DNA from: a phage
Sequence record: PZ386971.1
DNA: 64,000 nt
Direction: 5' to 3' (one strand)
A program made the translations under genes and the position numbers. This document shows, piece by piece, positions 2,124 through 55,446 of the stretch; position 1 is the first letter of the stretch; every line of letters begins with the position of its first letter. The notes beneath the pieces were generated by a model. The model ran no database searches. It worked only from the letters and a program-made list of their open reading frames with translations, and was not told the origin of the DNA.

Positions 2124-2156
2124 GGTCTCAGCCCTTAAATAGATAGAGTGTTATGG

Positions 2157-4960: not shown

Positions 4961-5517
4961 ATTTCAATCCCCAGATTGGTGTATAACAACTCAGACAGGG
5001 TTACAGGACGCTTGAATTGTTCCCAGCTGCAGTTCAGGTATTCGCGCTCTTCACGCATTTCACCGTGAAGATGGCCATGGATATTATACGCCCAGCGGTC
5101 TAATTGATAAGGAACGTGAGTGGTCAGCACACGACCAACCGGAGTATCACGCTCATACATCGCACCAAAGGAGCTAATCCATCCCTCTTGATACAGCTGC
5201 ATCAACATCTTGAATTTGTCATGGTTGCCTTGCGCCACCCTGATGATAAAGTTCGGTCGCCAGTCATCAGGGACGGGGCGGCGCTTGAACTCATCAATAT
5301 TCCGCTTGGCAACCTCGCGCATCAGGCGAATGAACCCCTCAGCCCCGATGAAGCAGATGTCCCCAGCCAGTTCAAGGACGTCTCGGGACTTCAGCCCCTG
5401 AAAGATACTGTCGATAACTGCAGCATCATGTGCCTCTTGGGTATCGAACCCACGGGGCTTGAAGATCTTCTTGTGTCCGAGGTGAGTGTCGCCCAGATAC
5501 TTTACAATTCCTGCCAT
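4957..5517 (-). CDS. metallophosphoesterase (calcineurin-like phosphatase)
   Basis: Motifs GDTHLG, GNHD and GHLHG; start placed at internal ATG 5517 preceded by GAGGAG and overlapping upstream TAA. Confidence 0.7.
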
Positions 5518-5945
5518 TATGGTCTCCTCAACCATTCTAAAATCGGTACGTTCACAAACCCTTTATGCCAGCGATGGGGTTTATGGCCTCTGTTGTGTTC
5601 GAGCAAACACGTATCCGGTGGGACACTGAAGTGGATGCCTTCGATGTCGTAGTAATGCCCATCAATCAGAGTATACACATGACCTTCGGTCTGACTGTAA
5701 TGGATCTCTGCTTGGGGATACACGTGCTTCAGAAGTAGAGCAACCTGGTAACACTTCCCGTTCTTCCCCACGTACTCGACATCCACCTGTTGTGGAAACA
5801 CATCTTTGATAAGGTTTATCAATCTCGTGATGTCATTTACGACAACCGAACGTTTCATATCACCTCTCCCGAGGATTCGTTGGTGAACCAATGATACTCT
5901 ATCCCGGATATAGAAAAGCCCCTCACGGGGCTTGATCGTCTTCAT
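5517..5945 (-). CDS. hypothetical protein (His-rich)
   Basis: 142-aa ORF in same-strand array. Confidence 0.5.
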
Positions 5946-6225
5946 CAGGGAATATACGCCATCGACCTATTCCATACCACTCACCGATAGAGTTCCATGT
6001 CCTTTCCCCAGGCCAGCCGCCGACCGAGTAGTAATGCGCCACCAGCCGCCAGTAAGGAAGAGAGGCCGTGTTCACGCCGCCGTCGGCCTTTAGGCAGGCC
6101 AAGTACCAATTCGTGAGACTGAACGCCTGAAATAACGGATGAAGGAACATGAAGTACAGGTAGCCCAATATGGCTGTGAATACCCCAGCTGTTACGATCA
6201 CACCGATGACAGTGAATACAATCAT
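5923..6225 (-). CDS. membrane protein
   Basis: 100 aa with N-terminal hydrophobic helices. Confidence 0.45.
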   Translation of the reverse strand: MIVFTVIGVIVTAGVFTAILGYLYFMFLHPLFQAFSLTNWYLACLKADGGVNTASLPYWRLVAHYYSVGGWPGERTWNSIGEWYGIGRWRIFPDEDDQAP

Positions 6226-6854
6226 CCCACAACCTCCAGACCCATCAGATCTTCCATGGTCTTCTGAATACGCAGCCAGTCAAGCGCAGCGTCATAACGA
6301 GGGTCATGATAGACCATACCTTCCAGTTCCCACGCCTTGATACCAGCATACCGATCCTGCTGTCCAACACCCTTCAGCCAACTCACGATGTCGAAGGTGT
6401 GGTGGTAGTCCCAAGGCTCGTTGGAGTCCTGCTTACATGTCACCTCAATGATGTGCTGAGCCTTGCGCAGATCAAACAGGTTGCGATCACACCAGTCGAC
6501 CGAGCGCGGGTCTACCCCAAGACGATGACAACCCTTGCGGATTTCATCGGCCAATTGGAAGATAGAGATGTCATCTTCCTTGGGGTACAGACTGACTGCG
6601 CGAGCCGCATCACACGGGTTACGTTTACCCGCCCCCAACCACCATTCTACCGTCCCAGCGTCCTTCACGCGACCAAGTTCGAGCTGCTCTTTGACATTCA
6701 GCTTAATGAACGTCGTGCGCTCCTCAACCAGCTGCTGAAGAGTATAACGCTTGGTCAGGTCGGCGATGGTGTGCGCCCAAGACAGCATGACTGCATCATC
6801 CCAGCGCCCCAAGGTTTCACTGTCGGCCACAGCCAAAAAATTTGATTTATACAT
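6222..6854 (-). CDS. DEDDh-type 3'-5' exonuclease (DnaQ-like)
   Basis: Exo I motif LAVADSETLG near N-terminus and Exo III-like HDPRYDAALD near C-terminus. Confidence 0.6.
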   Translation of the reverse strand: MYKSNFLAVADSETLGRWDDAVMLSWAHTIADLTKRYTLQQLVEERTTFIKLNVKEQLELGRVKDAGTVEWWLGAGKRNPCDAARAVSLYPKEDDISIFQLADEIRKGCHRLGVDPRSVDWCDRNLFDLRKAQHIIEVTCKQDSNEPWDYHHTFDIVSWLKGVGQQDRYAGIKAWELEGMVYHDPRYDAALDWLRIQKTMEDLMGLEVVG

Positions 6855-13696: not shown

Positions 13697-14242
13697 CTAG
13701 CCCAGAAACACTACTAAAGTCAAATTAGTGAGGGCGCTGCGGCCTTCCCGCAGCATTTCATGCGCAGATGCAAGGCGCTTGGGGTCATGCAACGTATCAG
13801 AGAACACGATGATGTTTGCTTTATCGATGCCCGTGCCCATGTAATGGGAGATGGTTGTCGTGTGCTGTTTCTTGTCTACATCGGGCAATGATACATCCGC
13901 GCCTGCTCGGGAGCGGAAGAAAGAATCGCGTTCACTAACGCTATGGAAGACACCCATGATGTTGAGGTTGTTCTCTGTCTGGAAATCATAGGACAGAATC
14001 TTCTTCAGCGCGGCGGTGTGCCCAGTCTGGCGCAGCATGCGATAGTACAGTATGTTTCCAGAACAGGTGGGGTCCGTCACACCTCCCCTCGATTGGCGAT
14101 CTTTCTGGATTTCATACGCATCCAGGATAAGTTGTTGGACCATTTCAATATGGGCAGTCAGGGAGATTTCGACTTTACGTTTGACCATGGATTTCATTTG
14201 GTGTATCCTCAGATAGGTTCCGCTCATGGGGAACGGTTCCAT
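13697..14242 (-). CDS. hypothetical protein
   Basis: 181-aa ORF. Confidence 0.5.
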   Translation of the reverse strand: MEPFPMSGTYLRIHQMKSMVKRKVEISLTAHIEMVQQLILDAYEIQKDRQSRGGVTDPTCSGNILYYRMLRQTGHTAALKKILSYDFQTENNLNIMGVFHSVSERDSFFRSRAGADVSLPDVDKKQHTTTISHYMGTGIDKANIIVFSDTLHDPKRLASAHEMLREGRSALTNLTLVVFLG

Positions 14243-14264
14243 TATACACCAAATGCTGGAAATG

Positions 14265-14290
14265 AAAAAGAGGCCGGAGCCTCTTTTGTT
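14265..14290. terminator. intrinsic terminator hairpin (bidirectional)
   Basis: gaggc-cgga-gcctc stem-loop flanked by A-run upstream and TTTTGTT downstream. Confidence 0.5.
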
Positions 14291-14315: not shown

Positions 14316-14573
14316 TCATTCCTCTTCATATTTGCCTGTCCTGAAGTTCCACTTTCGCGCATTCTTCAGGTCGAGGTCTTTGAAGATGTTTCCAAAGATC
14401 TTTTGGAAGGAGGTCTGCTCTTGTTCTTCCTCAAGATCCTTGGGCTTCTTGACAGGCTCTTTCACCATACCGCCTTCGGGTTTCCCCACATCGGCGGTCG
14501 TGGTTCCAGGGGCTGCTGAGTCTTCAAGGAAGTCCTGGAAGCCTTTCATGATTAGACCGCAGCCATTTCGCAA
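14316..14573 (-). CDS. hypothetical acidic protein
   Basis: 85-aa ORF followed by terminator. Confidence 0.4.
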   Translation of the reverse strand: MRNGCGLIMKGFQDFLEDSAAPGTTTADVGKPEGGMVKEPVKKPKDLEEEQEQTSFQKIFGNIFKDLDLKNARKWNFRTGKYEEE

Positions 14574-15373
14574 CGAGTAGAGGTCACAGAGTGGCCGTCA
14601 GCGTCTTCAACAACACACCAGTACTCACCCTCGTTTTCGGCAGCAACTGCAGTGATAACCAGGCTCGCAGTTGCAGCAGTGGGGTTAGTGCCAGCATCGA
14701 TCACCTCACCTTCACCACCAGGGACATCAGAGAAGTACCAAGTATGTGTGTATGGGGTAGTGCCGCCTGTAGCAGCGATGGTGAAGGTTGCGGATTCACC
14801 TGTTGTTACATCCTGAGAAGCAGCCAGATCGGTAGACAGAGACAGAGCGCCAGCCACTGTGATGACGGTAGAGTCAGTGTGGTCACCTTCGATGGTTACA
14901 CCGTAAACAGTCACTGAACCCGGTGCCAGCAGCTTGAATTTACCACCACCGATGTGCACAGCTTTGGTCAGATCGCCAGAGTACCAGTTGACACCCTGGT
15001 AGGTCGCGTTCTCCGGAGCGACGACCGCCTTCAGTTCAACAACCTGACCGACTTCACCATTAGCAGTTTCAGGGGTGATGGTCAGGCCAGTGGTCAGCAC
15101 AGCGCTTGGGTCGTGGATTTCATAAGACAGCTGGAAGCCAACGGGCTTGGTTGGATCCACTTTGGTGACGCCATCGGCCTGCAAATTGCTCTTGGTCAGC
15201 AGTGCATCCAGACCTTTACACTCAGTCAGGATCTCGTCTGGGTCTTGGTTAAGACTGGTCTTTTCCCAACCACGAGCAGTACCTGTTACAGTGTGAAGAC
15301 GCTCAGTTTCCGGTTTGTTGCGAACAACTTCCGGTGCTACTAATACAGTGATCGTTGGCATGGTTTCCTCCAC
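14552..15373 (-). CDS. Ig-like domain protein (Big_2-like plus I-set-like domain)
   Basis: VAPENATYQGVNWYSGD...VTVYGVTIEGD resembles Big_2; C-terminal GEYWCVVEDADGHS resembles an Ig-fold core. Confidence 0.6.
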   Translation of the reverse strand: MEETMPTITVLVAPEVVRNKPETERLHTVTGTARGWEKTSLNQDPDEILTECKGLDALLTKSNLQADGVTKVDPTKPVGFQLSYEIHDPSAVLTTGLTITPETANGEVGQVVELKAVVAPENATYQGVNWYSGDLTKAVHIGGGKFKLLAPGSVTVYGVTIEGDHTDSTVITVAGALSLSTDLAASQDVTTGESATFTIAATGGTTPYTHTWYFSDVPGGEGEVIDAGTNPTAATASLVITAVAAENEGEYWCVVEDADGHSVTSTRCEMAAV

Positions 15374-15732
15374 TCATCCAAATCGTTGTTCAGAGCCATC
15401 ATCAGCTCATTATCTGGTTCGTATGAACCGGAACATAAATCATCGCGCCATACGCCTAATGTCAACAAAGCAGCCTTGAGGCGTGGCAACTGGGGCTTAT
15501 CCACCTTCAAAACGAGCATACGGCAAGCGGCCTCTGTTTCGAACGTATTGAAGACAGTAATCAATTGATTGAGAATCAACCGAGGACTCTTACCAGGGAC
15601 AAATCTCTTCAATGATTGATTAATTAGCGAAATCCGCTGAATGTCTACCAGCAGTTCATCCCACGAGACAGAATCTACAATATAATGCCTCAGTGCATAA
15701 TCCATCAAGTTGCTTTCGTCAACGATAGGCAT
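15340..15732 (-). CDS. hypothetical protein
   Basis: 130-aa ORF. Confidence 0.45.
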   Translation of the reverse strand: MPIVDESNLMDYALRHYIVDSVSWDELLVDIQRISLINQSLKRFVPGKSPRLILNQLITVFNTFETEAACRMLVLKVDKPQLPRLKAALLTLGVWRDDLCSGSYEPDNELMMALNNDLDEWRKPCQRSLY

Positions 15733-15762
15733 ATTGAATAAGTTCAGCTGTTGTACATCGGC

Positions 15763-16191
15763 TTATTTAATCTGCAATTTTTCGATCAGCTTCGCAATCA
15801 GCTGAATGCGTTCTTCTTCTTCTGTGATACCCAGCGGCGCAGCCAACAACTTGAGATCATCTTCACCCAGCAGGTTCAGAGTCTCGACTGTGATGTTGGT
15901 TTCAATCACAGCCCCGGTTTCAAACGGCTTGCCGAACTTGTCGCGACCATAACGCTTGAGGGTCGCAGCCAGCCCTGGAAGCTCCTGGAGGAGTTCCTTC
16001 GTGCCGTCTTGGTATTCGCACACCCAACCGTACCCGCCAGCGTAGACGACGCCTCCGTCTCCCCCTGGAGGGATGTTATCGATGGCGCGTTGTAGGTAGG
16101 TAGGCAACACACCTTCCTCCTTCGCCTGGATGTCATCGACTGGGGCTTCAGTTTTAATTTCAACTTTCTTGACTTCAGGTTTCTTCGCCAT
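15763..16191 (-). CDS. hypothetical protein
   Basis: 142-aa ORF. Confidence 0.45.
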   Translation of the reverse strand: MAKKPEVKKVEIKTEAPVDDIQAKEEGVLPTYLQRAIDNIPPGGDGGVVYAGGYGWVCEYQDGTKELLQELPGLAATLKRYGRDKFGKPFETGAVIETNITVETLNLLGEDDLKLLAAPLGITEEEERIQLIAKLIEKLQIK

Positions 16192-16373
16192 GTTTGGTTC
16201 TCCTATAGACTGTTACGTATTTACCACAGCAATTGCAGCAGTATACGTGCATCGCGTATCCTTCGTCTGTGAAGTCGCAACCACCACAGCGACAGAACAA
16301 TTTCACGAACTGTTGGTCATGAACTTCACGGGGAGGGAATTGTTTGTGGGAGTATTCCCTGGTCTCGCCTTCG

Positions 16374-16400
16374 AACTGAAAAGGAGGCCGGAGCCTCCTT
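16374..16400 (-). terminator. intrinsic terminator downstream of rIIB-like gene
   Basis: aaggaggc-cgga-gcctcctt hairpin; minus strand continues with TTTT. Confidence 0.5.
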
Positions 16401-43209: not shown

Positions 43210-44400
43210 ATGGCCGATTTTCTGAGTCGATACACAGGTCAGCAGATTGATGCAATCCTTTCTTCTGTTGACGATAAAATAAGCAAGACTGATGTTGTCA
43301 ACGATTTCGCTGTTGATGATCCGTTGTTCCCTCCTTCAGCTCATTTGACATACGAGCTGAAGCGTTCTGTGGATAAAATCTACGACACACTGGAAAACAA
43401 AGTGATCCGCACCGACGGTGGTGAACAAACGATCAACGGGAACAAGACCTTTGCTGCGTTATTGACAGCCAACGGCGGCCTGACTGTTCCGGCTGGGAAG
43501 AAACTGTCTATCGCGGATGAGCCTATAGTAGCGACAGATGGTGTTAACCTGAGCATGTTGAGAAAGCATGGTGTCAGTGAAGACACTACCCCGCCTGGTT
43601 CTGGTTTGGCTGGGGAGTTGTTGACATCCGGATATTACAAATTCAATTTGGATTTCACCAGATTGTCTGCGTATACCGGATCAACGTTGCCGACTTCAAT
43701 TCCAGTACAAACAGATTCTGGAGCGCGTTATTGGACAATGACTGCATTTTTTGATGCGTTGTTCGCAGACAACCGATTTAATGGATATGTGACAACGACA
43801 GCGTATGACGCAGATATGCTGAGTCTAGAGTCCCAGATTAATAACATCAACACATCGTTGAACGGGAAAGTCAACACATCGACTTACAACACTAAGATGG
43901 CGTCGTTGGATTTGAGTATCTCCAATATCAATACGTCTCTGGGTAATAAAGTCGAGGTCAGCACGTACAACACGAAGATGACATCTCTGGATAACAGCAT
44001 CAGTTCTCTTTCCAGTGATAAAGTTAATGTATCAACGTATAATGCCAAGATGACCTCTGTCGACAATAGTTTAGGGAACGCCGTTTATCGTACCAAAACG
44101 AATTTGTCTTCTTACACGGTTTCGGCTTCTGGGACGACGGCTCTTCCAGATTTTGATTTGGTGAACCTTTGTCAAATACTGGTGACCGCGCAATGGGGAA
44201 CAGGTAACGTTGTTGATACATATCGAGTAACCATAACTCGCGACGGAACTATCAAATCGGAGTTGTTGGTTCAGAAAAGTACGAGCGGTACAGTGACGTT
44301 CACAGGGGCTGTGGTGGGTGGTAAATTGAGAATTTCCGTTGTTAATGCGAATACAACAACTGCTTGTTCGGTCGATTATTCTATTGTAGCTTCTTTCTAA
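43210..44400 (+). CDS. tail fiber protein with internal tandem repeats
   Basis: N-terminal fiber-like segment (VIRTDGGEQTINGNKTF); three tandem ~21-aa repeats (NINTSLxxKVxxSTYNTKMxSLD). Confidence 0.6.
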   Translation: MADFLSRYTGQQIDAILSSVDDKISKTDVVNDFAVDDPLFPPSAHLTYELKRSVDKIYDTLENKVIRTDGGEQTINGNKTFAALLTANGGLTVPAGKKLSIADEPIVATDGVNLSMLRKHGVSEDTTPPGSGLAGELLTSGYYKFNLDFTRLSAYTGSTLPTSIPVQTDSGARYWTMTAFFDALFADNRFNGYVTTTAYDADMLSLESQINNINTSLNGKVNTSTYNTKMASLDLSISNINTSLGNKVEVSTYNTKMTSLDNSISSLSSDKVNVSTYNAKMTSVDNSLGNAVYRTKTNLSSYTVSASGTTALPDFDLVNLCQILVTAQWGTGNVVDTYRVTITRDGTIKSELLVQKSTSGTVTFTGAVVGGKLRISVVNANTTTACSVDYSIVASF

Positions 44401-44408
44401 AGTGAAAA

Positions 44409-44417
44409 CTAAATACC
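44409..44417 (+). promoter_or_regulatory. candidate late promoter (CTAAATAcc) with downstream leader hairpin
   Basis: Motif followed by perfect inverted repeat tacccta...taggggta just upstream of ATG 44453. Confidence 0.4.
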
Positions 44418-44452
44418 CCTAGATGAAACGAACACATTTAGGGGTATTTGAA

Positions 44453-47400
44453 ATGGCTAATAAACCAACACAGCCTGTTTTCCCTCTCGGTCTGGTGGCT
44501 GAAGAGCAGTCTACTTTGGCTGGTGTCGTCAACAAGGGTACGATTGAGCATGGACCAGATGCTGTCCTGACTTTACCCGAGGGTAATGCCAGCGCAGGAC
44601 TCCCGTCTTCCGTTCGCTACAATGCCGACTCCGACGAATTTGAGGGCTTCTATGAAAATGGTGGATGGTTGCCGCTGGGTGGCGGTGGTATCCGCTGGGA
44701 AGTCCTTCCGCATGCCTCTACGGTAATGCTCACTGAAGGGCGAGGCTATCTCATTAATAATACCACAGGGGCATCTACAGTGGTTCTCCCTTCCCCTACG
44801 CGTATTGGGGATTCCGTTACTATTTGTGATGCTTATGGGAAATTTGCCACTTACCCATTGACCGTGTCTCCTTCTGGAAATAATTTGTATGGCTCCACTG
44901 AAGACATGGCTATAACAACTGATAACGTATCAGCAACGTTCACTTGGTCTGGGCCTGAACAAGGTTGGATTATTACATCCGGCGTCGGTCTTGGCCAAGG
45001 CCGTGTCTACAGTCGTGAAATCTTTACAAAAATTTTGGCGTCTGAAACAAGTACTGTCACTCTCAATACTCCACCAACAATCGTGGACGTGTATGCTGAC
45101 GGAAAACGCCTTGCGGAATCCAAATATTCACTAGATGGGAATGTAATCACTTTCAGTCCTTCTTTGCCAGCCAGCACAGAACTTCAGGTGATTGAATATA
45201 CTCCTATTCAATTGGGTAATGGCGGTGGTTCTAGTTCTTCTACGATTACTTGGGTCTATAATGGGGGTTCAGCGATTGGCGGTGAAACCGAAATCACGTT
45301 GGACGTCGTTGTTGATGATGTTCCGGCCATTGATATAAACGGAAGTCGTCAGTATAAAAATCTGGGATTCACATTCGATCCATTAACCAGTAAAATCACT
45401 CTGGCGCAAGAACTGGAACCAGAAGATGAAGTTGTTGTAATTATCAATGGAACACCAAACATCTATAATCAAATTGATCATACTTTGCGGGAAGTGGCTC
45501 GTGTAACCAATGTTAAAGATACAGAGGTCGTTTATTTTAGTGTTGGTGCTGTGCTAAGCGGGTATAAAGTTATCTATGATAAAGTAACACAGAGATCATA
45601 TTTTATTCCAGAGCTACCGACTGGAACCACGGCAGTCAGCCTTAGTTCTTCGGCTGTACTTGTGCATTCTGCTGGTAGTGTTGATCTGGGCGCATTAGCC
45701 GTATCTCGTGAGGAGTATGTGACCTTACCTGGTTCATTCGATACAGGTGTAACTGTTAATACCAAGAATGAGTTGGTTGTGAGTAACGATATTAAATATC
45801 GTTGGGATGGTTCTGTACCCAAAGTAGTCCCTCCAGAATCTACCCCATTGGGTACAGGAGGTGTTGGTCCAGGGGCATGGCTTGTAGTTGGTGTTGTTGG
45901 ATTAGAGCAACGTTTAGCCTCCTGGAAAGGTTCTTCTCTTATTGATTCCGGTAGTCTGTCTCTTTACAAAAAGAGCGGTGTATTCGGTGATGGTGGGAAT
46001 GTATCCGATAAATATCAGGTTGTTCTACATTCAGATGGGTTCTGGTACAAGTACAATGGGACACTACCTGTTAGTTATGGTGCTGCCCCAGACTCTTCTT
46101 GGACTAACGTTGGTAAGCTAACAGGGTTTAATGAACACTCACCTGAGAATTTTGGTGCAATCCCCAATGACCCTAGTTTTGACTGTTTACCTGCTATAAA
46201 ACTAGCTATAGCCACAGGTACATTAAATCTGAATGGGAATTCTACCTACCACGTAACGGATGAGGTTGTTATACCTTCTTACTTACGTGGGAATCTAAAC
46301 GGGGCAACAATTAAAGCAATTGGCTCCGTATGGCCTACGTTAAAAGCTGTTGTACGCGTTAGTAAATTTCCTGTCGGTACAGCAACAGTGGATGTGGCTA
46401 ATACAGAGAATCAAGTGCGAGGATTACGCTTAATCGGTAGCTTAAACGTAGACTGTGCAGATATTGCATCATATGGTTTTTATGCACGTCTTCTGTGTGC
46501 AGAATCTGAGATGGGTAGCATCTATGCATATAATGCTAATAGATATGGCATTGTAATGTTTGCTTGCTGGTATTTTCAAATGGGCACTCTCCATGCAAAC
46601 AACTGTGCAAGGGGTATGGCATTAGGTTATTCAACAGAAGGTGAGCAAGGGGATACCTATGTGAATGCTACACACTTCCCTCACATTAGTGCATGGGGTA
46701 CTGATAAGTCTACGGGACTAGGTTATGACCCAATCACGGATGATGCGAGTAAATATACAATAGGTGCTGGTATTATCTTAGGTCGTGGTTTGTCTACCAG
46801 TGTTGGTGTGATTTGCTCTGAGAATACGGCAGGTGCTGGGGTAGTAACAATGGACCCTGCTGCGTGGGACATTGGGGTCATGTACTGTGAGGGTAATAGT
46901 AAAGACTTTACTCAAGAGGGTGAACCCAAGGTGTCATTGCTGTCATCCAAGGCCAACAGTGAAAGTCATACGCTTACCATCTCCACACTCCACCTTTCCG
47001 CAGGTTGTGGCATTTTAACCAGAAGCAATCAAGAGCGTGTGCTAATCAGAAGTCTATATCGCTTTGATAACGCAAAAACCTTCCACTCTTACTGCACAGC
47101 AGACACAGTAGAGGTTGGTAGCAGCAACTACTATGTACTTAACGGGCATAATTACAATGCACCTGCTGCACTTATTAAGGAACCGCTCAATGTAGACTTT
47201 GTGCGTTCAGGGTTGACTTTAAGTGAGTGGACATCTACAGTTATCGGTCATTTTGCTGGTAGTACAGCAGAACAACAGCTTTATGTTAAGCTCCCAGCAA
47301 GTCCCAGCGGCCTAGATTTACAGATAGATAGTGAGGATGGGACGGAATATATCACTGTAACTGGTACAGATTTTAAAGTCTCTCTAACTAAGAAAAGATT

Positions 47401-47506
47401 GCCTAGTAAACTGTATGAGATAAGGATTGGTGGGGTGTCTACAGTAGCTGTTACCGATTGTTCTATTCTAGTCAGAAGTAAAAAAGGTGATTGGTATTAC
47501 TGGTAG
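44453..47506 (+). CDS. tailspike protein A (N-terminal anchor region, shared ~130-aa module, beta-helix-like C-terminal part)
   Basis: Start set at MANKPTQ downstream of promoter and leader hairpin; shared module at about aa 375-510. Confidence 0.65.
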   Translation: MANKPTQPVFPLGLVAEEQSTLAGVVNKGTIEHGPDAVLTLPEGNASAGLPSSVRYNADSDEFEGFYENGGWLPLGGGGIRWEVLPHASTVMLTEGRGYLINNTTGASTVVLPSPTRIGDSVTICDAYGKFATYPLTVSPSGNNLYGSTEDMAITTDNVSATFTWSGPEQGWIITSGVGLGQGRVYSREIFTKILASETSTVTLNTPPTIVDVYADGKRLAESKYSLDGNVITFSPSLPASTELQVIEYTPIQLGNGGGSSSSTITWVYNGGSAIGGETEITLDVVVDDVPAIDINGSRQYKNLGFTFDPLTSKITLAQELEPEDEVVVIINGTPNIYNQIDHTLREVARVTNVKDTEVVYFSVGAVLSGYKVIYDKVTQRSYFIPELPTGTTAVSLSSSAVLVHSAGSVDLGALAVSREEYVTLPGSFDTGVTVNTKNELVVSNDIKYRWDGSVPKVVPPESTPLGTGGVGPGAWLVVGVVGLEQRLASWKGSSLIDSGSLSLYKKSGVFGDGGNVSDKYQVVLHSDGFWYKYNGTLPVSYGAAPDSSWTNVGKLTGFNEHSPENFGAIPNDPSFDCLPAIKLAIATGTLNLNGNSTYHVTDEVVIPSYLRGNLNGATIKAIGSVWPTLKAVVRVSKFPVGTATVDVANTENQVRGLRLIGSLNVDCADIASYGFYARLLCAESEMGSIYAYNANRYGIVMFACWYFQMGTLHANNCARGMALGYSTEGEQGDTYVNATHFPHISAWGTDKSTGLGYDPITDDASKYTIGAGIILGRGLSTSVGVICSENTAGAGVVTMDPAAWDIGVMYCEGNSKDFTQEGEPKVSLLSSKANSESHTLTISTLHLSAGCGILTRSNQERVLIRSLYRFDNAKTFHSYCTADTVEVGSSNYYVLNGHNYNAPAALIKEPLNVDFVRSGLTLSEWTSTVIGHFAGSTAEQQLYVKLPASPSGLDLQIDSEDGTEYITVTGTDFKVSLTKKRLPSKLYEIRIGGVSTVAVTDCSILVRSKKGDWYYW

Positions 47507-47513
47507 TATAATA

Positions 47514-47542
47514 AAAAGCCCCCAATTTTGGGGGCTTTTATT
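47514..47542 (+). terminator. intrinsic terminator after tailspike A
   Basis: gccccc-aatttt-gggggc hairpin then TTTTATT. Confidence 0.6.
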
Positions 47543-47570
47543 ATATAGAGTTTACTGTTTTCATTACCCT
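47536..47570. repeat. conserved ~35-bp element downstream of tailspike terminators (copy 1)
   Basis: ttttatatagagtttactgttttcattaccct; near-identical copy at 55206-55240. Confidence 0.5.
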
Positions 47571-47762
47571 GATTGATAATGCTGTTGGCTCTCTCGGGTT
47601 GTCATCAAACGGGTATAAGAACTTTATAGGTGATATCAATGATGGGTCAGCGTATTTTTATTTCGCCAACATAGATGGATCAAGAATATCGGGGTCGTCT
47701 GTTTATGATGGGTGGGGTGATGTTGGTATACATTTTGAAATGTGTCTGGAATAGGAGTGTCA

Positions 47763-47857
47763 AACCCCGCTTTGGCGGGGTTCTTATTATACCTTTGTTC
47801 ATAAATTTGATTAGTTCAGACTAAATACTCCATATTGGTCATCCTTTATGGGGTATT
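47763..47857. repeat. repeated cassette-boundary module (hairpin + late promoter + leader hairpin), copy 1
   Basis: About 95 bp, roughly 85% identical by eye to 50741-50832, immediately upstream of tailspike B. Confidence 0.6.
47821..47829 (+). promoter_or_regulatory. candidate late promoter (CTAAATAct)
   Basis: Within repeated module, 32 nt upstream of ATG 47861. Confidence 0.4.
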
Positions 47858-47860
47858 ATC

Positions 47861-50290
47861 ATGATTTCTCAATTCAATCAACCACGCGGCTCCACTTCCA
47901 TAGAAGTTAACAAACAATCTATCGCTCGAAATTTCGGTGTCAAAGAAGACGAAGTCGTTTATTTCACTGCTGGTATTGATCTCAGTGGATTTAAAGTAAT
48001 TTATAATGAGTCTACCCAACGGGCTTATTCTCTTCCTTCAGGTATTGTTTCAGGAACGACTGCGATAAGTCTGGATAAAAGAGCTATCCTCACTCATTCA
48101 GCGGGTTCTGTTGATCTTGGGGAATTAGCAGTAAGCCGCGAAGAATACGTAACCTTACCTGGTTCATTTGATACTGGTGTAACTGTTAATACTAAGAATG
48201 AATTAGTTGTCTTTACCGATGGTAAGTATCGCTGGGATGGGGCACTGCCTAAAGAAGTGCCTGCTGGTTCAACCCCTACATCAACCGGTGGTGTTGGAAC
48301 AGGTGCATGGGTTAGTGTTGGTGATGCGAGTTTGAGGTCAATAGCTCAATACAGAGCCAATACCATTGAAGATTTAAAATCATTGCCATTTGCGGTTGGA
48401 GATATTGTTAATGTCGCTGGGTATTATGATGTTTTTGATGGGGCACAGCATTACCGAGTGATTAGTGGTACAGATGATGGAACAGGGGTTCAGCTCAATA
48501 ATGGTTTGTGGGCAAATATTATCATTAATGGCGATGCTTGTGTAGATTGGTTTGGCGCTAAAGGTGATGGTGTTGCAGATGACTGGTGGGCAATCAATAA
48601 AGCTATTAACGCCTCGCTCTCTACCGATTATCAGGGTGGTTGGTGGGAGACGTCAAGTAGAAACCCTAAATTTAAAGTTAGACTTAGTAGACGCTCTTAC
48701 AGAATCACTAAACAGATTTTACTACCCCCTTACATAGAGTTTTATGGTATGGGTTCGCGCTGGTATTTTTCGGGTGATAATAATTCTCGCTTAATCCCTG
48801 ATTTTGATAATCCGTTGCAATTCGCTGTGAAATCTGCTAGCTATATTGTTGAAACCGGTGAACTAGCACCTGAGGGGTGGTATTCTGGGGTGGTTTGGGT
48901 TGACCCAAAAAAACTAACGACTTGTCATGGTATTAAAACTTATGGATATAGCATCGAACCAACAAAACAAATTTTAGGCGGTATAAGACTGATAGCGAGT
49001 CCAATTTCTCATGTATACGATATATTCATAACAAATGTTGATTTTGGAGTTTTACTGAATTGTTCATGGGTGAGTAAGGTTGACGTTAAAACTCATCATA
49101 ATAAATGCGGGGTTATGTCTAGTCATGATGGTAATAACACTCACGTGGATGGTTATTTTACAGGGACAGAAATCAAACCGCTTGATGGTAATCCTTACCT
49201 CAACCCAATAGAGTCTTTAGACTCTACAACAGGGCTCCAAGACCAATCTATATCTGACCCAGACAGTAAAATAGGTGTGATTTTTTATTGGTCACAGGGG
49301 TCAACAAGTACGAATATGACGTGTGAGGGTAACACTATTTCGTTGGCTGTGGCTAAGGGTGGTGCTGATGTAAGGTGTTTATACTCAGAACGTAATTCAG
49401 ATTGTACATTTACTGGGTACAGTTCACTAGTTACAATTGGTGAAATAACTGGCATTGGTGACGGTGGAACTTTTGAGCTTGGTGTAAATAATACTATTTC
49501 GTTAGACAAAGACACTCAGTATGGTGTCGCTAAACGATTTAAGTACGTGAGCGAGTGGGGTAATAAGCTGTTTATGCCCTCTAGCTGGAAAGAATACACC
49601 AAAGGTTGTTTAGTTGAAGGGTTTGATTATAGCGAAATTTTTGTAGATGCGATAAATGGAGATGACACCAATGTTGGCTCCAGTCTTCACCCTGTGAAAA
49701 CTTTGGAGAGAGCTCTAACGCTTGTGAATTCAGTGTATACTACATCTGACTTGCTAAGCTCAGTGCCGAGGGATAGAGTAATAAAGTTAGTAGGCTCAGC
49801 AACATACTACCCAGACGGACAGCATAGGTTCGTGGGCGGCTCGTTAAAAATTACAAAAGCTGATAACTCACGACCGACTGTTAATTTATCAAAACCAATC
49901 CGATTTAACGACACATCCCTAGTATTTGAGGAAGTAAATTTAGTGCGACCAACAGATGACCACGGGAATAATGAGAATGGCGCAATTTTCCTTGAGGATG
50001 GGTGTAATGAAGTCAGATTGAAAAACTGCGATCTAAGTCTACAAAAATTCAGCTTCTTATATCCTACTTGGGGCTTTGCTGGAATATGTACCTTGGTGTT
50101 AAACGGGGTTAGTGTTACTGGTGATTCAACAACAAGAATGATACAAACAGCTGATGGATATCATGATTTGCACTTGTTTAATGTAATTAGCTACGAGACA
50201 ACTTACACTGGAGGAATAGAGTCAAGACCAGATAAAGGCTATGATATACCAGCAGATAGACGTGGTCATATATTGGGTGTATCAATATAA
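47861..50290 (+). CDS. tailspike protein B (shared N-terminal module + pectate-lyase-like beta-helix)
   Basis: Shared module at aa 20-150; WFGAKGDGVADDWWAINKAI resembles the beta-helix depolymerase entry motif. Confidence 0.65.
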   Translation: MISQFNQPRGSTSIEVNKQSIARNFGVKEDEVVYFTAGIDLSGFKVIYNESTQRAYSLPSGIVSGTTAISLDKRAILTHSAGSVDLGELAVSREEYVTLPGSFDTGVTVNTKNELVVFTDGKYRWDGALPKEVPAGSTPTSTGGVGTGAWVSVGDASLRSIAQYRANTIEDLKSLPFAVGDIVNVAGYYDVFDGAQHYRVISGTDDGTGVQLNNGLWANIIINGDACVDWFGAKGDGVADDWWAINKAINASLSTDYQGGWWETSSRNPKFKVRLSRRSYRITKQILLPPYIEFYGMGSRWYFSGDNNSRLIPDFDNPLQFAVKSASYIVETGELAPEGWYSGVVWVDPKKLTTCHGIKTYGYSIEPTKQILGGIRLIASPISHVYDIFITNVDFGVLLNCSWVSKVDVKTHHNKCGVMSSHDGNNTHVDGYFTGTEIKPLDGNPYLNPIESLDSTTGLQDQSISDPDSKIGVIFYWSQGSTSTNMTCEGNTISLAVAKGGADVRCLYSERNSDCTFTGYSSLVTIGEITGIGDGGTFELGVNNTISLDKDTQYGVAKRFKYVSEWGNKLFMPSSWKEYTKGCLVEGFDYSEIFVDAINGDDTNVGSSLHPVKTLERALTLVNSVYTTSDLLSSVPRDRVIKLVGSATYYPDGQHRFVGGSLKITKADNSRPTVNLSKPIRFNDTSLVFEEVNLVRPTDDHGNNENGAIFLEDGCNEVRLKNCDLSLQKFSFLYPTWGFAGICTLVLNGVSVTGDSTTRMIQTADGYHDLHLFNVISYETTYTGGIESRPDKGYDIPADRRGHILGVSI

Positions 50291-50740
50291 ATAATTGATA
50301 TTATGCTTCATGGTGATTGTGGGTGATTCACCCACGATTACTTTTAGGTACTACAGTTGATAATTCAGATTGATACATTGGATTGGCAGGTGCGTGTAAT
50401 ACTGCACTTGAATTTTGATACATAAATCCGGCACCCTCCCTCACCCTCAACGCGCCCAATTGCCCCCATAGGAGGCTCATTACCTCCTTGTGGGCTTTGT
50501 TGTTTTTGTGGCTGCTGTTGCTGACTACATTCTATGTATGGATGTATCTCATCATACTAAGCATTATCTAAGAGCCATCCTATGATACGACCCCATTGGG
50601 ATTCCTAACTTCACAACTACGGTAATATTATGAATTAATCAGGTGAACTGCTCCTAGTCAGACTGGAGGAACGATTGAAGACTCTGTTTGATAATCAGGC
50701 AAGGGATAGATAGGATCGTGGTTTTGGAGAGTAAAATCAA

Positions 50741-50832
50741 AACCCCTCTTCGGCGGGTTCTTGTTATACCTTTGTTCATAAATTTATTAGTTCAGACTAA
50801 ATACCCCATATTGGCAAATCCTCTATGGGGTA
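50741..50832. repeat. repeated cassette-boundary module, copy 2
   Basis: Near-duplicate of 47763-47857 immediately upstream of tailspike C. Confidence 0.6.
50797..50805 (+). promoter_or_regulatory. candidate late promoter (CTAAATAcc)
   Basis: Followed by leader hairpin taccccata...tatggggta and ATG 50841. Confidence 0.4.
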
Positions 50833-50840
50833 TCTTCAAA

Positions 50841-53177
50841 ATGACCAGAAACGTCGAGAGCATCTTTGGAGCGGTCGTAACAGCTCCGCACCAGATTCCA
50901 TACACTTACACAGCAACGGGTGGAGAGAAGTTTATCTCCCTCCCTTTCTACCCTGTCACTGGTATAGTCACAATCAACGGTGGCATGCAAGTTCCGTTAG
51001 ACAACTTTGAAATCGATGGAAATACGTTGAATCTCGGACGCGCATTATCCAAAGGTGACGTTGTGTTCTGTCTGTTTGATAAGATTCTGTCTCCAGAAGA
51101 TTATAAAACCGGGGTTCGAATCTATAAGTTTCAGGCTATAGGAGGTGAAACCGAGTTCACTCCTGATTACACATATTATGGAGTCCAATCTCTTTATATC
51201 GGTGGTGAGTACAAAACACCCGAAATTGAATATTCCTATGACAGCACGACAGGGAAAGTGTCTTTACAAACTGCGCTGACTGCAGGCGTTTGGGTAGTCG
51301 CTGAAATGTCTGTTAAACAACCGAATATCAGTCCGTTGTTTGACCGAAGTATTCAAGAAATCGCCCGTTCAACTAATGTAAAAGATTCTGAAGTAATCCT
51401 TAGTACGGATACTTCTCAGGTACTTAATGGTAAGAAAATTATTTACTCTGTTAATGAGCAGAAGTCTTATGGTTTACCGGTATTACCTACTAACGTTTAT
51501 ATTCAGTCTGTTGTTAACGGGAAGCTCACATACAATCCTGGTTCTGTGGTTGTAGATTTACTCTCTGTACCAAGTGAAGCACTTGAAGCAGTTAATTTAA
51601 TTAAAACCAATTTACTTAGTGAATCGGGTGCATCTTTGGTTGGGTATACAAAACCCTATACTGGTGCAGTTAAACGTCTTGCTTCTGATTACTTTAATCA
51701 GGAGATTAACGTTGATGACTTTGGTGCATACGGTGATGCATATCTTCTTAACGGCACTGTAAACCCAAATCGCCATGATGACTCTGCTGCATTCCAGAAG
51801 GCATTGATTGCTGCTTATCGAATTGGTGGTGCTAAGGTTGTAGCTACTCCTTGGAAGAGTTATTACATTGCCAACAAGGTATATGTACTAGCTTCCGAGT
51901 CCGGTTCCGATATTGAAGCACCAGTTTTCCCTAAACGTCGTATCCAGTTAATTGATTTACAGGGTGCTACCATTGTTGGACAGGATGATACATCTAACAC
52001 CAGTAATGTGTTTATGGAGACAGGCTATATTACTAGTACTGGTTCTGTAGCTTCCGTATTTGGTAAAGGTGAGGAAGAGTATTTAACCATTGGTACATGT
52101 GTGCGAAATGCTACGCTGGTAAATTTCTACCAAGGCTTCCGTTTCCGTGACCATGTTTTTGGTTGTGAACTTACCGATATTGTAGGACAAGATGTGCAGC
52201 AGCTTCTTTATACTCGTCGCTGTTTCTACTCGCTGTACCGTAACTTACAATGCAATGGTAGTTTTACTACTGGCTTGCATCGTTATGACATTGGGGATGA
52301 AGTGAATATTCAGCCTCTGATTTCGGTCCATACTGGCGAGTGTGACGTAGGTATTAAGTTCACTGGGGCAGTTGAAGCACTGACTCTCTTTAACTGTGGT
52401 ATTGAAAGTTTCCGCACACATGGAGTATGGATTGCTGGTGCTTACAATATTAAGTTCGATTCTTGTTACTTTGAATCGAATCACCCTAATGTGTACGGTT
52501 GTATCGCTACCAGTGCTAATAACATTACATTGGATAATAACTGGATTTATGGTTCATCTTTTAAGATGTTCGGTGGGTTTGATGACAACACTAATGTCAG
52601 AATGCACCCTAATAACCGTATAGGGGGTGGAGCAGTTTGGTGGGATCTTAATGAAGGCTCCCCTTATAACTTATCTGACTTACACTTCCCTACTGACATA
52701 AAAGCTGGTGGTAATACCTTACCCGTAGTTAGTGCCAAGGAAGCTAGTACTGTAAACCAGACTATTACTTTCTATGACCCTAATTTAGGTTTGTCCTCAA
52801 TAGTTGGTAAAGCAGAGCAAACTAACCGTTTCCACCCACAACGAGTAAATGGTCAGATGAGCATCGGTAGTACTGCATCTTATACAGTTGGTGCATCTAC
52901 AACCACTGAAGTAGTTGGAAATGATACCCGAGTTAAGTGGACTACCCAAATAAGATATTCTGATACACAGTTACTGTATGTAGCACTTAAGGTAGATAAC
53001 AACTTAGGAACCTGGTTCTGGTTAGGCCATGTTGTAGGTGATACAGCTAAAGCCTTACTTACCAGTGATGAAAACAAACCCCCTGTAGTTACTAATGAAA
53101 ATGGTTATGTAACTATAACCAGTCCACTACTTGCTACCCCTATTGCAATTCATGGTGGTGAGATTCGTATACTGTAA
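50841..53177 (+). CDS. tailspike protein C (divergent copy of shared module + beta-helix-like domain)
   Basis: Start set at ATG 50841 downstream of promoter (track ORF began at 50688); DDFGAYGDAY...SAAFQKALIAA motif. Confidence 0.6.
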   Translation: MTRNVESIFGAVVTAPHQIPYTYTATGGEKFISLPFYPVTGIVTINGGMQVPLDNFEIDGNTLNLGRALSKGDVVFCLFDKILSPEDYKTGVRIYKFQAIGGETEFTPDYTYYGVQSLYIGGEYKTPEIEYSYDSTTGKVSLQTALTAGVWVVAEMSVKQPNISPLFDRSIQEIARSTNVKDSEVILSTDTSQVLNGKKIIYSVNEQKSYGLPVLPTNVYIQSVVNGKLTYNPGSVVVDLLSVPSEALEAVNLIKTNLLSESGASLVGYTKPYTGAVKRLASDYFNQEINVDDFGAYGDAYLLNGTVNPNRHDDSAAFQKALIAAYRIGGAKVVATPWKSYYIANKVYVLASESGSDIEAPVFPKRRIQLIDLQGATIVGQDDTSNTSNVFMETGYITSTGSVASVFGKGEEEYLTIGTCVRNATLVNFYQGFRFRDHVFGCELTDIVGQDVQQLLYTRRCFYSLYRNLQCNGSFTTGLHRYDIGDEVNIQPLISVHTGECDVGIKFTGAVEALTLFNCGIESFRTHGVWIAGAYNIKFDSCYFESNHPNVYGCIATSANNITLDNNWIYGSSFKMFGGFDDNTNVRMHPNNRIGGGAVWWDLNEGSPYNLSDLHFPTDIKAGGNTLPVVSAKEASTVNQTITFYDPNLGLSSIVGKAEQTNRFHPQRVNGQMSIGSTASYTVGASTTTEVVGNDTRVKWTTQIRYSDTQLLYVALKVDNNLGTWFWLGHVVGDTAKALLTSDENKPPVVTNENGYVTITSPLLATPIAIHGGEIRIL

Positions 53178-53228
53178 TTACACAGCCCCCTTAACTGGGG
53201 GCTACCATAGAAAAACAATGAGGTTTAT

Positions 53229-55145
53229 ATGAACGAAATGTTCTCACAAGGTGGTAAAGGCTCCACTGGTATTCTTACCAATAAACAAGCCATTGCTCGT
53301 AAGTTTGGTGTTAAGCAGAACGAAGTAGTTTACTTTTCTGTAGGAGTAGACTTGGGTGGATACAAAGTCATTTATGATAAGGCTACTCAACGTGCTTACT
53401 CACTACCTGCAAATATTGCCCCAGGTACTATTGCTACTAGTCTTAGTGCTAATGCTGTACTTGTTCATTCAGCTGGTTCTGTAGATCTTGGGGAATTAGC
53501 CGTATCTCGTGAAGAATACGTTACATTGTCTAGGTCGTTTGACACTGGTGCTACACTTAATGTTAAAAATGAATTGCTTACCCATACAACAGGTAAGTAT
53601 CGCTGGGATGGCGAGTTACCTAAAACCGTTTCTTCTGGCTCAACTCCTGAAAGTGCTGGTGGTACTGGGTTAGGCAAATGGGTTAGTGTTGGTGATGCAG
53701 CCTTGAGAATCAATCTTGCATCTGATGATGGCGCTGGTCTGGTCGGATTTAAGTCACCTCTGGCCAACTCCATTAAGCGAACACTACATGATAAAAATAA
53801 AGACCTGGTGTCAGTCAAGGACTTCGGGGCTGTTGGCGACGGTGTGACCGATGATACCGCCGCGTTTCAGGCAGCAATAGATTCGAAAAAGAGTTTATAC
53901 ATACCGGATGGTATTTATCTTATAAGCTCTACTTTAATCATAACTGCCACTGATAGTCTATGTATTGTTGGTAATAGTTTTGGACATGTTAATGACCAAA
54001 CAACAGGTTCAGTAATTAAGTTTACCGGGTTAGCGTCACCCGCCATTCGGGTTCAAGGTGGTGCGATAGGAGCTAAGATTTCTGGACTTTTTCTGGATAT
54101 CCAGGATTCATCATCTGATGGCTTTGATTTCGGTGGGGCTTGGTATTTAAAACTTCAAGATTGCGTTGTCAGAAACGCTCGATATGGGGTCTATTTACAT
54201 TACGATAGCCCAGACTATTTTTCCGGAGTAGCTGAACTAACTTCATGCTATTTCGCTAAATGTGCAAATGGTGTAAAAACGTCAAAGGTAGATATCAACG
54301 TAGTTAAAGTTGATAATTGTACTTTCTTTGATGGTGTTAACGGTGTTCTTATCGGAGACTCAGGTACTGCAAGTAGTGTACGAAATTTCATAGTCAGAGA
54401 CTCTCTATTTGAAGCAAACACGGGCTATGACGTAGGTGTTGTCGCCGGGGGTGCACAGCAGTTACTGGTAGATGGTAACTACTTTGAAGAGAATACTGCT
54501 TCTTCTTTAGCCAGGGTATATGTTACAGATGATAGTCACTCACCGCGTTCTTCTTCTGTTTCAATAACCAACAACACGTTTAGCAAAGATACGACAGGCG
54601 ATCTTATTTTCCTGTCTGGTATTTCCGGTGTTCTTGTTAAACAAAACTGGTCAGCATTTGGGGGTATAGGTTTTGTAAGGGCTATTAATATCGACAATTA
54701 TGAGATAGATAGATGCTCTACCGTATCTGGAGCAACAGCCTGTAATGTTGTTATAGATAACGTCTTACAAGTACCTGACACTTCTGTTAATAAGATTTAT
54801 ATTAACAAGGCCCAAGAATACGCGTTTATCGGGACTTCCGTCGTAAAAAGGTCGAGTGCATGTACACGGGCAATGATCAATTTTAATGGAATTTCGGGGT
54901 CGTCAGTGTATGCGGATGGAGCAACTGTAACTAAAACCGGGACCGGTAAATATACCGTCAACCTATCTAATACTATGCCCTCCTCTGCTTATGCTGTTTT
55001 ATGCAGTGTTGGCAATACCACTAGCGGAGGGAAATTAGTAATTAATGTCGTAAGTACATCCCCTGACTCTTTTAACTTAGAAGTTTTTGACCTTTCTGGA
55101 TCGTATCAAGATTCAGGATACATATCTGCCGCAGTTGTTATGTAA
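53229..55145 (+). CDS. tailspike protein D (shared N-terminal module + pectate-lyase-like beta-helix)
   Basis: Shared module at aa 20-150; VKDFGAVGDGVTDDTAAFQAAIDS beta-helix entry motif. Confidence 0.65.
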   Translation: MNEMFSQGGKGSTGILTNKQAIARKFGVKQNEVVYFSVGVDLGGYKVIYDKATQRAYSLPANIAPGTIATSLSANAVLVHSAGSVDLGELAVSREEYVTLSRSFDTGATLNVKNELLTHTTGKYRWDGELPKTVSSGSTPESAGGTGLGKWVSVGDAALRINLASDDGAGLVGFKSPLANSIKRTLHDKNKDLVSVKDFGAVGDGVTDDTAAFQAAIDSKKSLYIPDGIYLISSTLIITATDSLCIVGNSFGHVNDQTTGSVIKFTGLASPAIRVQGGAIGAKISGLFLDIQDSSSDGFDFGGAWYLKLQDCVVRNARYGVYLHYDSPDYFSGVAELTSCYFAKCANGVKTSKVDINVVKVDNCTFFDGVNGVLIGDSGTASSVRNFIVRDSLFEANTGYDVGVVAGGAQQLLVDGNYFEENTASSLARVYVTDDSHSPRSSSVSITNNTFSKDTTGDLIFLSGISGVLVKQNWSAFGGIGFVRAINIDNYEIDRCSTVSGATACNVVIDNVLQVPDTSVNKIYINKAQEYAFIGTSVVKRSSACTRAMINFNGISGSSVYADGATVTKTGTGKYTVNLSNTMPSSAYAVLCSVGNTTSGGKLVINVVSTSPDSFNLEVFDLSGSYQDSGYISAAVVM

Positions 55146-55160
55146 GTAATAATCACTTAA

Positions 55161-55195
55161 AAACAACCCCACTTCTATGGGGTTGTTTTTACTTA
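55161..55195 (+). terminator. intrinsic terminator after tailspike D
   Basis: aaacaacccc...ggggttgttt 10-bp stem then TTTTTAC. Confidence 0.6.
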
Positions 55196-55205
55196 TTAAT
55201 AATAC

Positions 55206-55240
55206 TTTTTATATAGAGTTTACTGTTTGCATTACCCTAA
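55206..55240. repeat. conserved ~35-bp element downstream of tailspike terminators (copy 2)
   Basis: tttatatagagtttactgtttgcattaccct, matching 47536-47570. Confidence 0.5.
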
Positions 55241-55404
55241 TCGATACAGCAGTTAAGGTAATAGTCTGACCTGATATATTAAACATACCTAATTGAATAC
55301 CATCTACCATGAATGGCAGAGGTCTCGAATCCATGACCATAACCACAGAAAGATAATCAAAGCCCCTTCGGGCTTATTTCTTTCTATTCCTCGGTTGGTT
55401 GTAT

Positions 55405-55413
55405 ACTAAATAT
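55405..55413 (+). promoter_or_regulatory. candidate late promoter (CTAAATAtc)
   Basis: About 34 nt upstream of ATG 55447. Confidence 0.35.
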
Positions 55414-55446
55414 CTCTATAATGGCACCTATCGATGGAGCATCAAA

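Follow-up and report, generated by a model that had tools for sequence, protein, structure and literature searches.

The closest described systems are T5 pb10, T4 Hoc, and N4 gp17. In T5 pb10, a capsid-binding domain forms the N-terminal part and an Ig-like domain the C-terminal part, and binding of pb10 to the capsid has reportedly been proven. T4 Hoc is an acidic virion accessory protein of the non-essential type, consisting of three Ig domains and one conserved non-Ig anchor domain at the C-terminus. The hoc gene shares its strand with rnlB and further non-structural genes and is located apart from the main head cluster. The design of Hoc has been described as a constant anchor combined with a variable string of displayed Ig domains (PMC10385173). 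N4 gp17, the ‘32 kDa protein’, was identified as a capsid decoration protein by cryo-EM (PMC11768535). The family analyzed here is itself already known: it is present in RefSeq, under the name ‘structural protein with Ig domain’, and in PHROGs, and one ortholog was reported as the structural protein ‘Hoc’ in 2012.

We analyzed a window of 64,000 nucleotides (record PZ386971.1) that belongs to an Ackermannviridae (Aglimvirinae) phage and carries a gene for an Ig-like protein on the minus strand. A 2.2 kb segment around this gene showed, over its full length, 98.4–99.1% identity to the Escherichia phages vB_EcoM-RPN242, ZQ1, YX22, and AV101, and 88–90% identity to the Agtrevirus phages AG3, SKML-39, and EspM4VN. 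The protein was 100% identical to the catalogued cluster P0001, and 99.3–99.6% identical to its orthologs in phages A221 and vB_CECAV_050. LIMEstone1 ORF6, CBA120 orf006, AG3 orf00006, Sajous1 gp83, and EspM4VN gene 56 are orthologs with 82–91% identity to the window protein. These five proteins share with it the length of 269 aa, the three-domain layout, and the position between rIIB and the HU-like/topoisomerase genes, and we found no difference of substance. PP35, a phage of the same species as LIMEstone1, carries orf006 at the LIMEstone1 coordinates; it is annotated as a ‘putative hoc protein’ and shares 88.6% identity with the window protein. The gene order rIIA–rIIB–...–Ig–...–HU-like–topoisomerase II was kept in six genera (Agtrevirus, Limestonevirus, Kuttervirus, Taipeivirus, Miltonvirus, and Nezavisimistyvirus). 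This synteny, together with a full-length profile match (E = 4.1e-74, residues 2–273 in the numbering from GTG), assigned the protein to PHROG 215, ‘structural protein with Ig domain’. The overall dN/dS ratio was ~0.06 (Nei–Gojobori, seven gap-free orthologs), which indicates strong purifying selection on the gene.

The earlier note, which was made from the sequence of the window, had assigned the gene to positions 14552–15373. The ORF over this minus-strand interval proved to be real, counting 273 aa from GTG, but its start had to be moved. The GTG at 15373 is merely the first in-frame start of the ORF. The Shine–Dalgarno sequence, the annotation of the relatives, and an N-terminal peptide from EspM4VN all place the start at the ATG at 15361. 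The resulting minus-strand CDS (14552–15361) encodes 269 aa plus the stop codon, corresponding to a protein of 28.0 kDa with a pI of 4.4. The Shine–Dalgarno motif GGAGG, read from the sequence, is located at 15367–15371 on the minus strand, 5 nt 5' of this ATG, where it falls within the upstream ORF at its 3' end. The peptide PTITVLVAPEVVR, which covers residues 2–14, was detected in EspM4VN virions by mass spectrometry. It matches the N-terminus expected once the initiator Met leaves M-P-T-I-T, and thus points to the 269 aa protein. The 12-nt extension up to the GTG (15362–15373, minus strand) is probably not translated, because the mature N-terminus in EspM4VN is PTITV... and GGAGG falls inside the extension. 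In most relatives the CDS is annotated as 810 nt; Sajous1 gp83 is annotated at 822 nt.

The protein is a virion protein, as its orthologs were found by published mass spectrometry in purified particles from three genera. The earlier note had proposed virion proteomics as a check, and the orthologs could be located in three independent virion proteomes, those of LIMEstone1 (ORF6, named "Hoc"), Sajous1 (gp83), and EspM4VN (gene 56). This supports one of its two suggestions, that of a structural gene placed outside the main late module. For Sajous1, a Kuttervirus, 43 spectra of gp83 were obtained from CsCl-purified virions (PMC10892097, Table 6). For the Agtrevirus EspM4VN, four peptides of gene 56 with a Mascot score of 339 came from an excised Coomassie-stained band (PMC7283392, supplement file 4). 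We verified that Sajous1 gp83 is the product of the syntenic gene, with 84% identity to the window protein. EspM4VN gene 56 was likewise confirmed as an ortholog, and all of its MS peptides fell in the N-terminal domain. In the GenBank record of LIMEstone1, ORF006 (5504–6313) is marked as ‘confirmed structural protein’. We dropped an estimate of the copy number from spectral counts: the portal is present in 12 copies per particle, and in Sajous1 its counts equaled those of the sheath. The flanking genes 55, 57, and 58 were absent from the EspM4VN proteome file. The product of the 130-aa ORF next to the Ig gene was not detected in EspM4VN virions, and that of the 142-aa ORF upstream of it was not detected in the LIMEstone1, Sajous1, and EspM4VN virion proteomes.

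The domain search that the earlier note had also proposed returned both of the Ig-like families it had named, above the Pfam gathering thresholds. Ig_3 matched with 38.6 bits (E = 1.5e-9, curated cut-off 30), I-set with 30.1 bits (E = 5.2e-7, cut-off 23.7), and Big_2 (PF02368) with 24.4 bits (E = 2.9e-5, gathering cut-off 22.8). The V-set and ig models also scored above their curated thresholds, and several ‘Hoc-like head decoration’ PHROGs matched the protein in addition to PHROG 215. The sequence was divided into three domains, all encoded on the minus strand. Residues 1–85 (15107–15361) form the N-terminal non-Ig domain (N-domain), the most conserved part of the protein and the proposed virion anchor. 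The Big_2 Ig-like domain extends over residues ~86–172 (14846–15106), as supported by Pfam, AlphaFold2, and a profile match to PDB 7quz, whose Big_2 domain matched the family profile with an E value of 1.9e-17. The C-terminal Ig_3/I-set-like domain covers residues ~173–269 (14555–14845), as supported by Pfam and by solved relatives; it varies between lineages.

An AlphaFold2 model was built from 22 homologues. Residues ~80–269 were predicted to fold into two beta-sandwich domains with block-mean pLDDT values of 84–96, that is, 84–94 for the all-beta Big_2 domain and 86–96 for the Ig_3/I-set domain. Both family assignments were thus backed by the Pfam score and by a predicted beta-sandwich. For the N-domain, AlphaFold2 yielded no confident model (pLDDT < 50), and a profile search of the PDB returned no structure matching residues 1–85. 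No Ackermannviridae ortholog was found among the PDB sequences searched. Foldseek returned 7quz (Big_2) as the top match, along with tandem-Ig structures, and titin, NCAM, and N4 gp17 were among its hits; against BFVD, it returned phage decoration and tail Ig proteins. The assignment as a protein with Big_2 and I-set-like domains therefore stands, resting on Pfam, PHROG 215, the predicted beta-sandwiches, and Foldseek.

Compared with the systems described above, the window protein resembles T4 Hoc in being an acidic virion accessory of the non-essential type that joins a string of Ig domains to one conserved non-Ig domain. The placement of its gene is also comparable to that of hoc. The polarity is reversed: Hoc has three Ig domains and a C-terminal non-Ig domain, whereas the window protein has two Ig domains and a non-Ig domain at the N-terminus. 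BLASTP against T4 Hoc gave an E value of 0.13 confined to the Ig repeats, with no match to Hoc's capsid-binding domain at the C-terminus. Because this domain is missing and an Ig domain stands at the C-terminal end of the window protein, we rejected membership in the Hoc family; the resemblance to Hoc is one of role. T5 pb10 has the same polarity as the window protein, and its C-terminal Ig domain (5lxk) matched the C-terminal Ig domain of the window protein with an E value of 1.4e-6. The ‘decorating protein’ of the T5-like phage Gostya9 was the best viral fold match outside the family (TM = 0.47/0.51). However, we detected no similarity between the N-terminal domain of pb10 and that of the window protein, and the window protein has an extra Big_2 domain. 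A homologous N-terminal domain would define a pb10-type protein, and only the C-terminal Ig domain matched 5lxk, so this assignment was also set aside. Among solved structures, the best sequence match to the C-terminal Ig domain was N4 gp17 residues 88–180 (DII), with an E value of 1.4e-10, or 4.7e-14 with the family profile. The two proteins are also close in size (about 28–32 kDa). Here, too, the first domains differ, that of the window protein being non-Ig and giving no match to gp17 DI.

With these comparisons in hand, we propose that the protein is probably a virion-surface decoration protein, with an N-domain anchor, two Ig domains facing outward, a likely position on the capsid, and a gene that is third in a late-type cluster. 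The conserved domain of ~85 residues would anchor the protein to the particle, and the string of Big_2 followed by Ig_3/I-set would project outward. The anchor would hold the protein on the shell in the manner of T5 pb10, or of T4 Hoc if its polarity were reversed. The Ig domains, which are acidic (pI 4.4), may adhere weakly to glycans or cell surfaces, keep the particles dispersed, or both. At the gene level, the Ig gene would be third in a cluster behind a terminator and a T4-type late-promoter element, with its translation coupled to that of the preceding ORF.

The capsid is favored as the location on three grounds. Capsid decoration proteins (N4 gp17, T5 pb10, and 8zvi) account for all of the closest solved relatives of the distal Ig domain, Hoc-like PHROGs match the protein, and the LIMEstone1 authors assigned ORF6 as Hoc-like. 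Judged from these similarities, the protein most likely binds the capsid. A virion protein on the tail, neck, or baseplate, such as an Ig-like tail accessory or a whisker-like protein, is an unlikely reading that nevertheless deserves consideration. The database names ‘tail fiber protein’, ‘tail protein’, and ‘tail fiber (whisker) protein’ are widespread. The Big_2 domain matches PHROGs of Big_2-bearing major tail proteins, as well as BFVD tail proteins, and it resembles C-terminal domains of siphophage tail tube proteins. In Sajous1, the 43 spectra of gp83 are near those of the tail tube (52) and the sheath (89), as opposed to 924 for the major capsid protein. The names, however, go back to a note in AG3, ‘similar to 32 kDa protein of N4’. 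The ‘tail fiber’ label has no experimental basis, because it derives from the similarity to N4 gp17, which is now recognized as a capsid decoration protein. The relatives of the distal Ig domain and the LIMEstone1 assignment also speak against the tail, and the Ig gene is remote from the clusters of tail and baseplate genes. The literature searched yielded no useful capsid cryo-EM, no pf16 proteome, and no MS of S117 tailocins, and the 2024 Ackermannviridae review did not mention the Ig protein.

Two further readings would deny the protein a genuine place in the particle. It might be an abundant non-structural protein that co-purifies with the particles, its proteomic matches being contamination. 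rIIB, ligase, and PhoH are indeed also listed at a low level in those proteomes. These proteins gave only 1 peptide or 1–2 spectra with less than 5% coverage, which makes contamination an improbable source of the Ig orthologs, for which the data sets list 4 peptides (21.9% coverage), 43 spectra, and, from a stained band, a Mascot score of 339. The orthologs were detected by three laboratories in three genera with differing purification schemes, whereas the operon neighbors of the Ig gene were undetected, and we regard contamination as very improbable. The second reading, raised in the earlier note, was an early-expressed cell-surface or periplasm-directed protein of the infected cell that is no true component of the particle. 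It could draw on the location of the gene within a ~30 kb co-directional block with replication and rII-type genes, on the missing exact CTAAATA upstream, and on the fact that secreted bacterial proteins also carry Ig-like domains. However, the N-terminus of the protein, MPTITVLVAPEVVRNKPETER, is not hydrophobic, with a maximum Kyte–Doolittle value of 0.85 over the first 15-residue windows. A search for signal-peptide features by hydropathy found neither a basic n-region nor a long hydrophobic core in the N-terminus. The peptide of residues 2–14 in the EspM4VN virion protein shows that residue 2 onward is retained, and thus that no signal peptide is cleaved. The presence in three virion proteomes weighs against this reading as well, as do the terminator and late-type promoter element that part the cluster from rIIA–rIIB. 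The early periplasmic reading is already largely refuted, and we give it hardly any weight.

The decoration protein preferred here is encoded in a cluster of small minus-strand ORFs. The first is the DUF7440 / phrog_3795 ORF (142 aa, 15763–16191), followed by the DUF7207 ORF (130 aa, 15340–15732). The latter is next upstream of the Ig gene and overlaps its start by 22 nt, which suggests translational coupling. The phrog_4805 ORF (77 aa, 14316–14549) starts 2 nt past the stop of the Ig gene and is probably the last gene of the cluster. The surroundings agreed with the earlier note, which had placed the gene among minus-strand early genes. All neighbors are co-directional; rIIA and rIIB lie upstream, and downstream come the HU-like gene, topoisomerase II, dexA, and cd. 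According to the AV101 annotation, the co-directional block of ~30 kb includes the DNA polymerase, many small ORFs, and the genes from rIIA to cd. The Ig gene is its sole annotated virion gene. The label ‘early’ would apply to this block by analogy with T4.

As a virion gene that lacked a late motif and was surrounded by early genes, the Ig gene appeared anomalous, and this anomaly largely dissolves with the terminator and the degenerate late-type promoter found upstream of the cluster. A Rho-independent terminator-like hairpin (GGAGGC-TCCG-GCCTCC-TTTT) is located directly 3' of rIIB, at 16379–16398 on the minus strand. It was recognized by eye and by its conservation: the hairpin is kept in every genus compared and is an annotated terminator in LIMEstone1. 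Our sigma-70/terminator scan missed it because the T-run has just four T's here, after a deletion of ~100 bp. The absence of CTAAATA upstream, as the note had observed, is literally true, the exact motif being absent from 2165 to 34264, but it is misleading. Upstream of the cluster, a -10 element resembling TATAAATA, as in T4-type late genes, was found in the form GTAAATA (16218–16224, minus strand), 26 nt 5' of the ATG of the 142-aa ORF at 16191. The LIMEstone1 record labels the corresponding TAAATA ‘-10 signal, putative late promoter’. The terminator, the putative late promoter, and the structural nature of the protein have been in public annotation since 2012.

The hexamer TAAATA occurs at the same offset in AV101, AG3, PP35, LIMEstone1, CBA120, IME250, and KN2-1, inside the 3' end of a small ORF, orf003. 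In most genera, its conservation could reflect coding constraint because it lies inside the orf003 CDS. In Miltonvirus 3M and in Bue1, orf003 is missing, the stretch is non-coding, and the element is TATAAATA, the perfect T4 late consensus. There it stands straight after the terminator, ~28 nt 5' of the ATG. We estimated the chance of finding this exact 8-mer on the correct strand in a spacer of ~80 nt at ~0.001 per genome.

In the window as a whole, 11 of the 29 TAAATA hexamers were found 23–40 nt 5' of a gene start, defined as an ORF of at least 60 codons with a Shine–Dalgarno sequence and ATG. Random positions gave 0.85 ± 0.93, with a maximum of 5. The well-placed sites include those before the genes for the tail spike, the baseplate wedge, the baseplate tube cap, and head closure; one of the 11 precedes the DNA polymerase gene, so the placement is not specific to virion genes. 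The base before the hexamer is C in eight of the 11 sites, T at the head-closure (gp4-like) gene, and G at the Ig cluster. The conclusion that a gene lacking CTAAATA is not late fails, because the late-type sites of the window vary, as TTAAATA at the head-closure gene and GTAAATA here illustrate. Strict CTAAATA searches will miss late-type promoters in these phages, where the core is TAAATA and the preceding base is variable. Relatives encode homologues of gp55, gp33, and gp45, which are needed for T4-type late transcription (PMC3184105).

A small late unit nested in an early-type block, comprising the DUF7440 ORF, the DUF7207 ORF, the Ig gene, and the small ORF behind it, is the most economical reading of the cluster. 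The promoter-like element suggests that the Ig gene would be expressed late. No Ackermannviridae transcriptome or transcription-timing data were found in the literature searched. A sigma-70-like promoter, assigned by consensus match only (TTTTCA-16-TATAAT, 10/12), is located 5' of the HU-like gene at 14241–14268 on the minus strand. It likely marks the start of the next, non-late unit. Another candidate that we considered, TTAAATA at 15771–15765, overlaps the stop of the 142-aa ORF; as a general promoter it was discarded, since PP35 has TTAAGTA at this site and no Shine–Dalgarno sequence follows it. The 30-nt spacer around this site is unusually conserved.

Within the Ig protein, conservation was highest in the N-domain, which accounts for 37 of the 50 columns found invariant across the six genera. 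The dN values were 0.061 for the N-domain, 0.078 for Big_2, and 0.111 for the distal Ig domain. Most lineages carry an Ig_3/I-set domain as the C-terminal module; in 3M a second Big_2 takes its place, in Bue1 the module is absent, and some metagenomic relatives contain three Big_2 domains. An N-domain profile searched against 1.84 billion proteins yielded just eight representative clusters at E ≤ 1e-10. In all eight, the match starts within the first 17 residues and the C-terminal region varies, and the lengths range from 93 to 349 aa. Five full-length clusters were scanned, and they carried one to three Big_2 domains. This combination of a conserved N-domain and a variable Ig string leads us to infer that the N-domain is the part bound to the particle, with the Ig domains facing outward. 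If the N-domain is indeed a capsid anchor, it would open a route to phage display on Ackermannviridae, which are under development for biocontrol and diagnostics.

A bolder and rather doubtful proposal is that the N-domain is a new particle-anchoring module, restricted to Ackermannviridae-like myoviruses, placed N-terminally before a variable string of one to three Ig-like domains, and perhaps distantly related to the DUF7440 protein. If this were true, the late-type cluster would form a display cassette complete in itself, made up of anchor paralogue, partner, and display protein, and the N-domain anchor could become a capsid-display handle analogous to Hoc and pb10. Pairwise BLASTP between the N-domain and the neighboring DUF7440 protein was not significant, and the N-domain profile search against 1.84 billion proteins recovered no DUF7440 protein. 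The DUF7440 model (PF24224) scored 20.7 bits on the N-domain, below its gathering threshold of 25, and 18.5–24.4 bits on the orthologs. An hhalign comparison between the N-domain and the DUF7440 protein from two genes upstream gave a probability of 53% (E = 1.4e-4), weakly suggesting that the two may be paralogous.

For the Ig protein (the 269-aa virion protein encoded at 14552–15361 on the minus strand), the non-Ig residues 1–85 (N-domain; 15107–15361, minus strand) were compared with the 142-aa ORF located two genes upstream of the Ig gene (15763–16191, minus strand). The 142-aa ORF gave a full-length match to DUF7440/phrog_3795 (E = 1.3e-44). The N-domain of the window protein and those of several diverged orthologs recurrently matched the first half of DUF7440 at sub-threshold scores (18.5–24.4 bits). 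Alignment of the N-domain with DUF7440 by hhalign yielded a probability of 53%, and the motifs GW..., E[IL]L.EC.GL..L and KP were common to both. These sequence similarities suggest a possible ancient duplication inside the cluster, but this was not confirmed when 1.84 billion proteins were searched with an N-domain profile.

By eye, the last ~35 residues of the 142-aa ORF (15763–15830, minus strand; …DLKLLAAPLGITEEEERIQLIAKLIEKLQIK) look like a candidate helix-extension-helix (SAP/Rho-N-like) DNA-binding motif. The ortholog in the related phage PP35 is labelled as 'putative transcription regulation protein' in the annotation of that phage. The 142-aa ORF is separated from the 130-aa DUF7207 ORF by a 30-nt spacer (within 15733–15775, minus strand; …CAGATTAAATAAnnCAGTGTACAACAGCTGAAC…ATG), whose conservation across genera exceeds that of the adjoining coding sequence. 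The spacer region carries a TTAAATA overlapping the stop codon, in place of which PP35 has TTAAGTA. The conserved spacer might act as a translational operator, form an RNA structure or serve as a secondary promoter.

Upstream of the cluster, ~100 bp that are present in AG3, PP35 and CBA120 are missing from the window and from phage AV101 (~16306–16380 in the window, minus strand). The deletion took away the start and the 5' part of the small orf003, which lies just past the rIIB terminator, leaving a 43-aa CxxC...CxxC remnant ORF with a GTG start (16175–16306, minus strand). The T-run of the rIIB terminator is also shortened in both phages.

Elsewhere in the window, late-type elements were found as a divergent pair at 2123–2174, one on each strand. 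CTAAATA (2164–2158, minus strand) is 34 nt before the baseplate tail-tube-cap (gp48-like) gene, and TTAAATA (2135–2141, plus strand) is 32 nt before the head-closure (gp4-like) gene. This pair shows that the base preceding TAAATA varies among late-type sites. A further TAAATA hexamer, again as TTAAATA, is located at 32220–32215 (minus strand), with the ATG of the DNA polymerase gene (999 aa) following 39 nt downstream. In T4, the DNA polymerase gene is early/middle. The hexamer may have arisen by chance, or it may point to late transcription at this gene, too.

The G+C content is 0.41–0.45 at 44000–56000 (plus strand), compared with ~0.50 elsewhere. Three large genes for tail spikes lie in this region (1017, 809 and 778 aa), all with CTAAATAcCcc/CTAAATActcc upstream, and they are followed by a 1612-aa ORF (phrog_358), which also has CTAAATA. 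PHROG matches mainly cover the N-terminal parts of the proteins. These features are consistent with receptor-binding modules that are exchanged horizontally.
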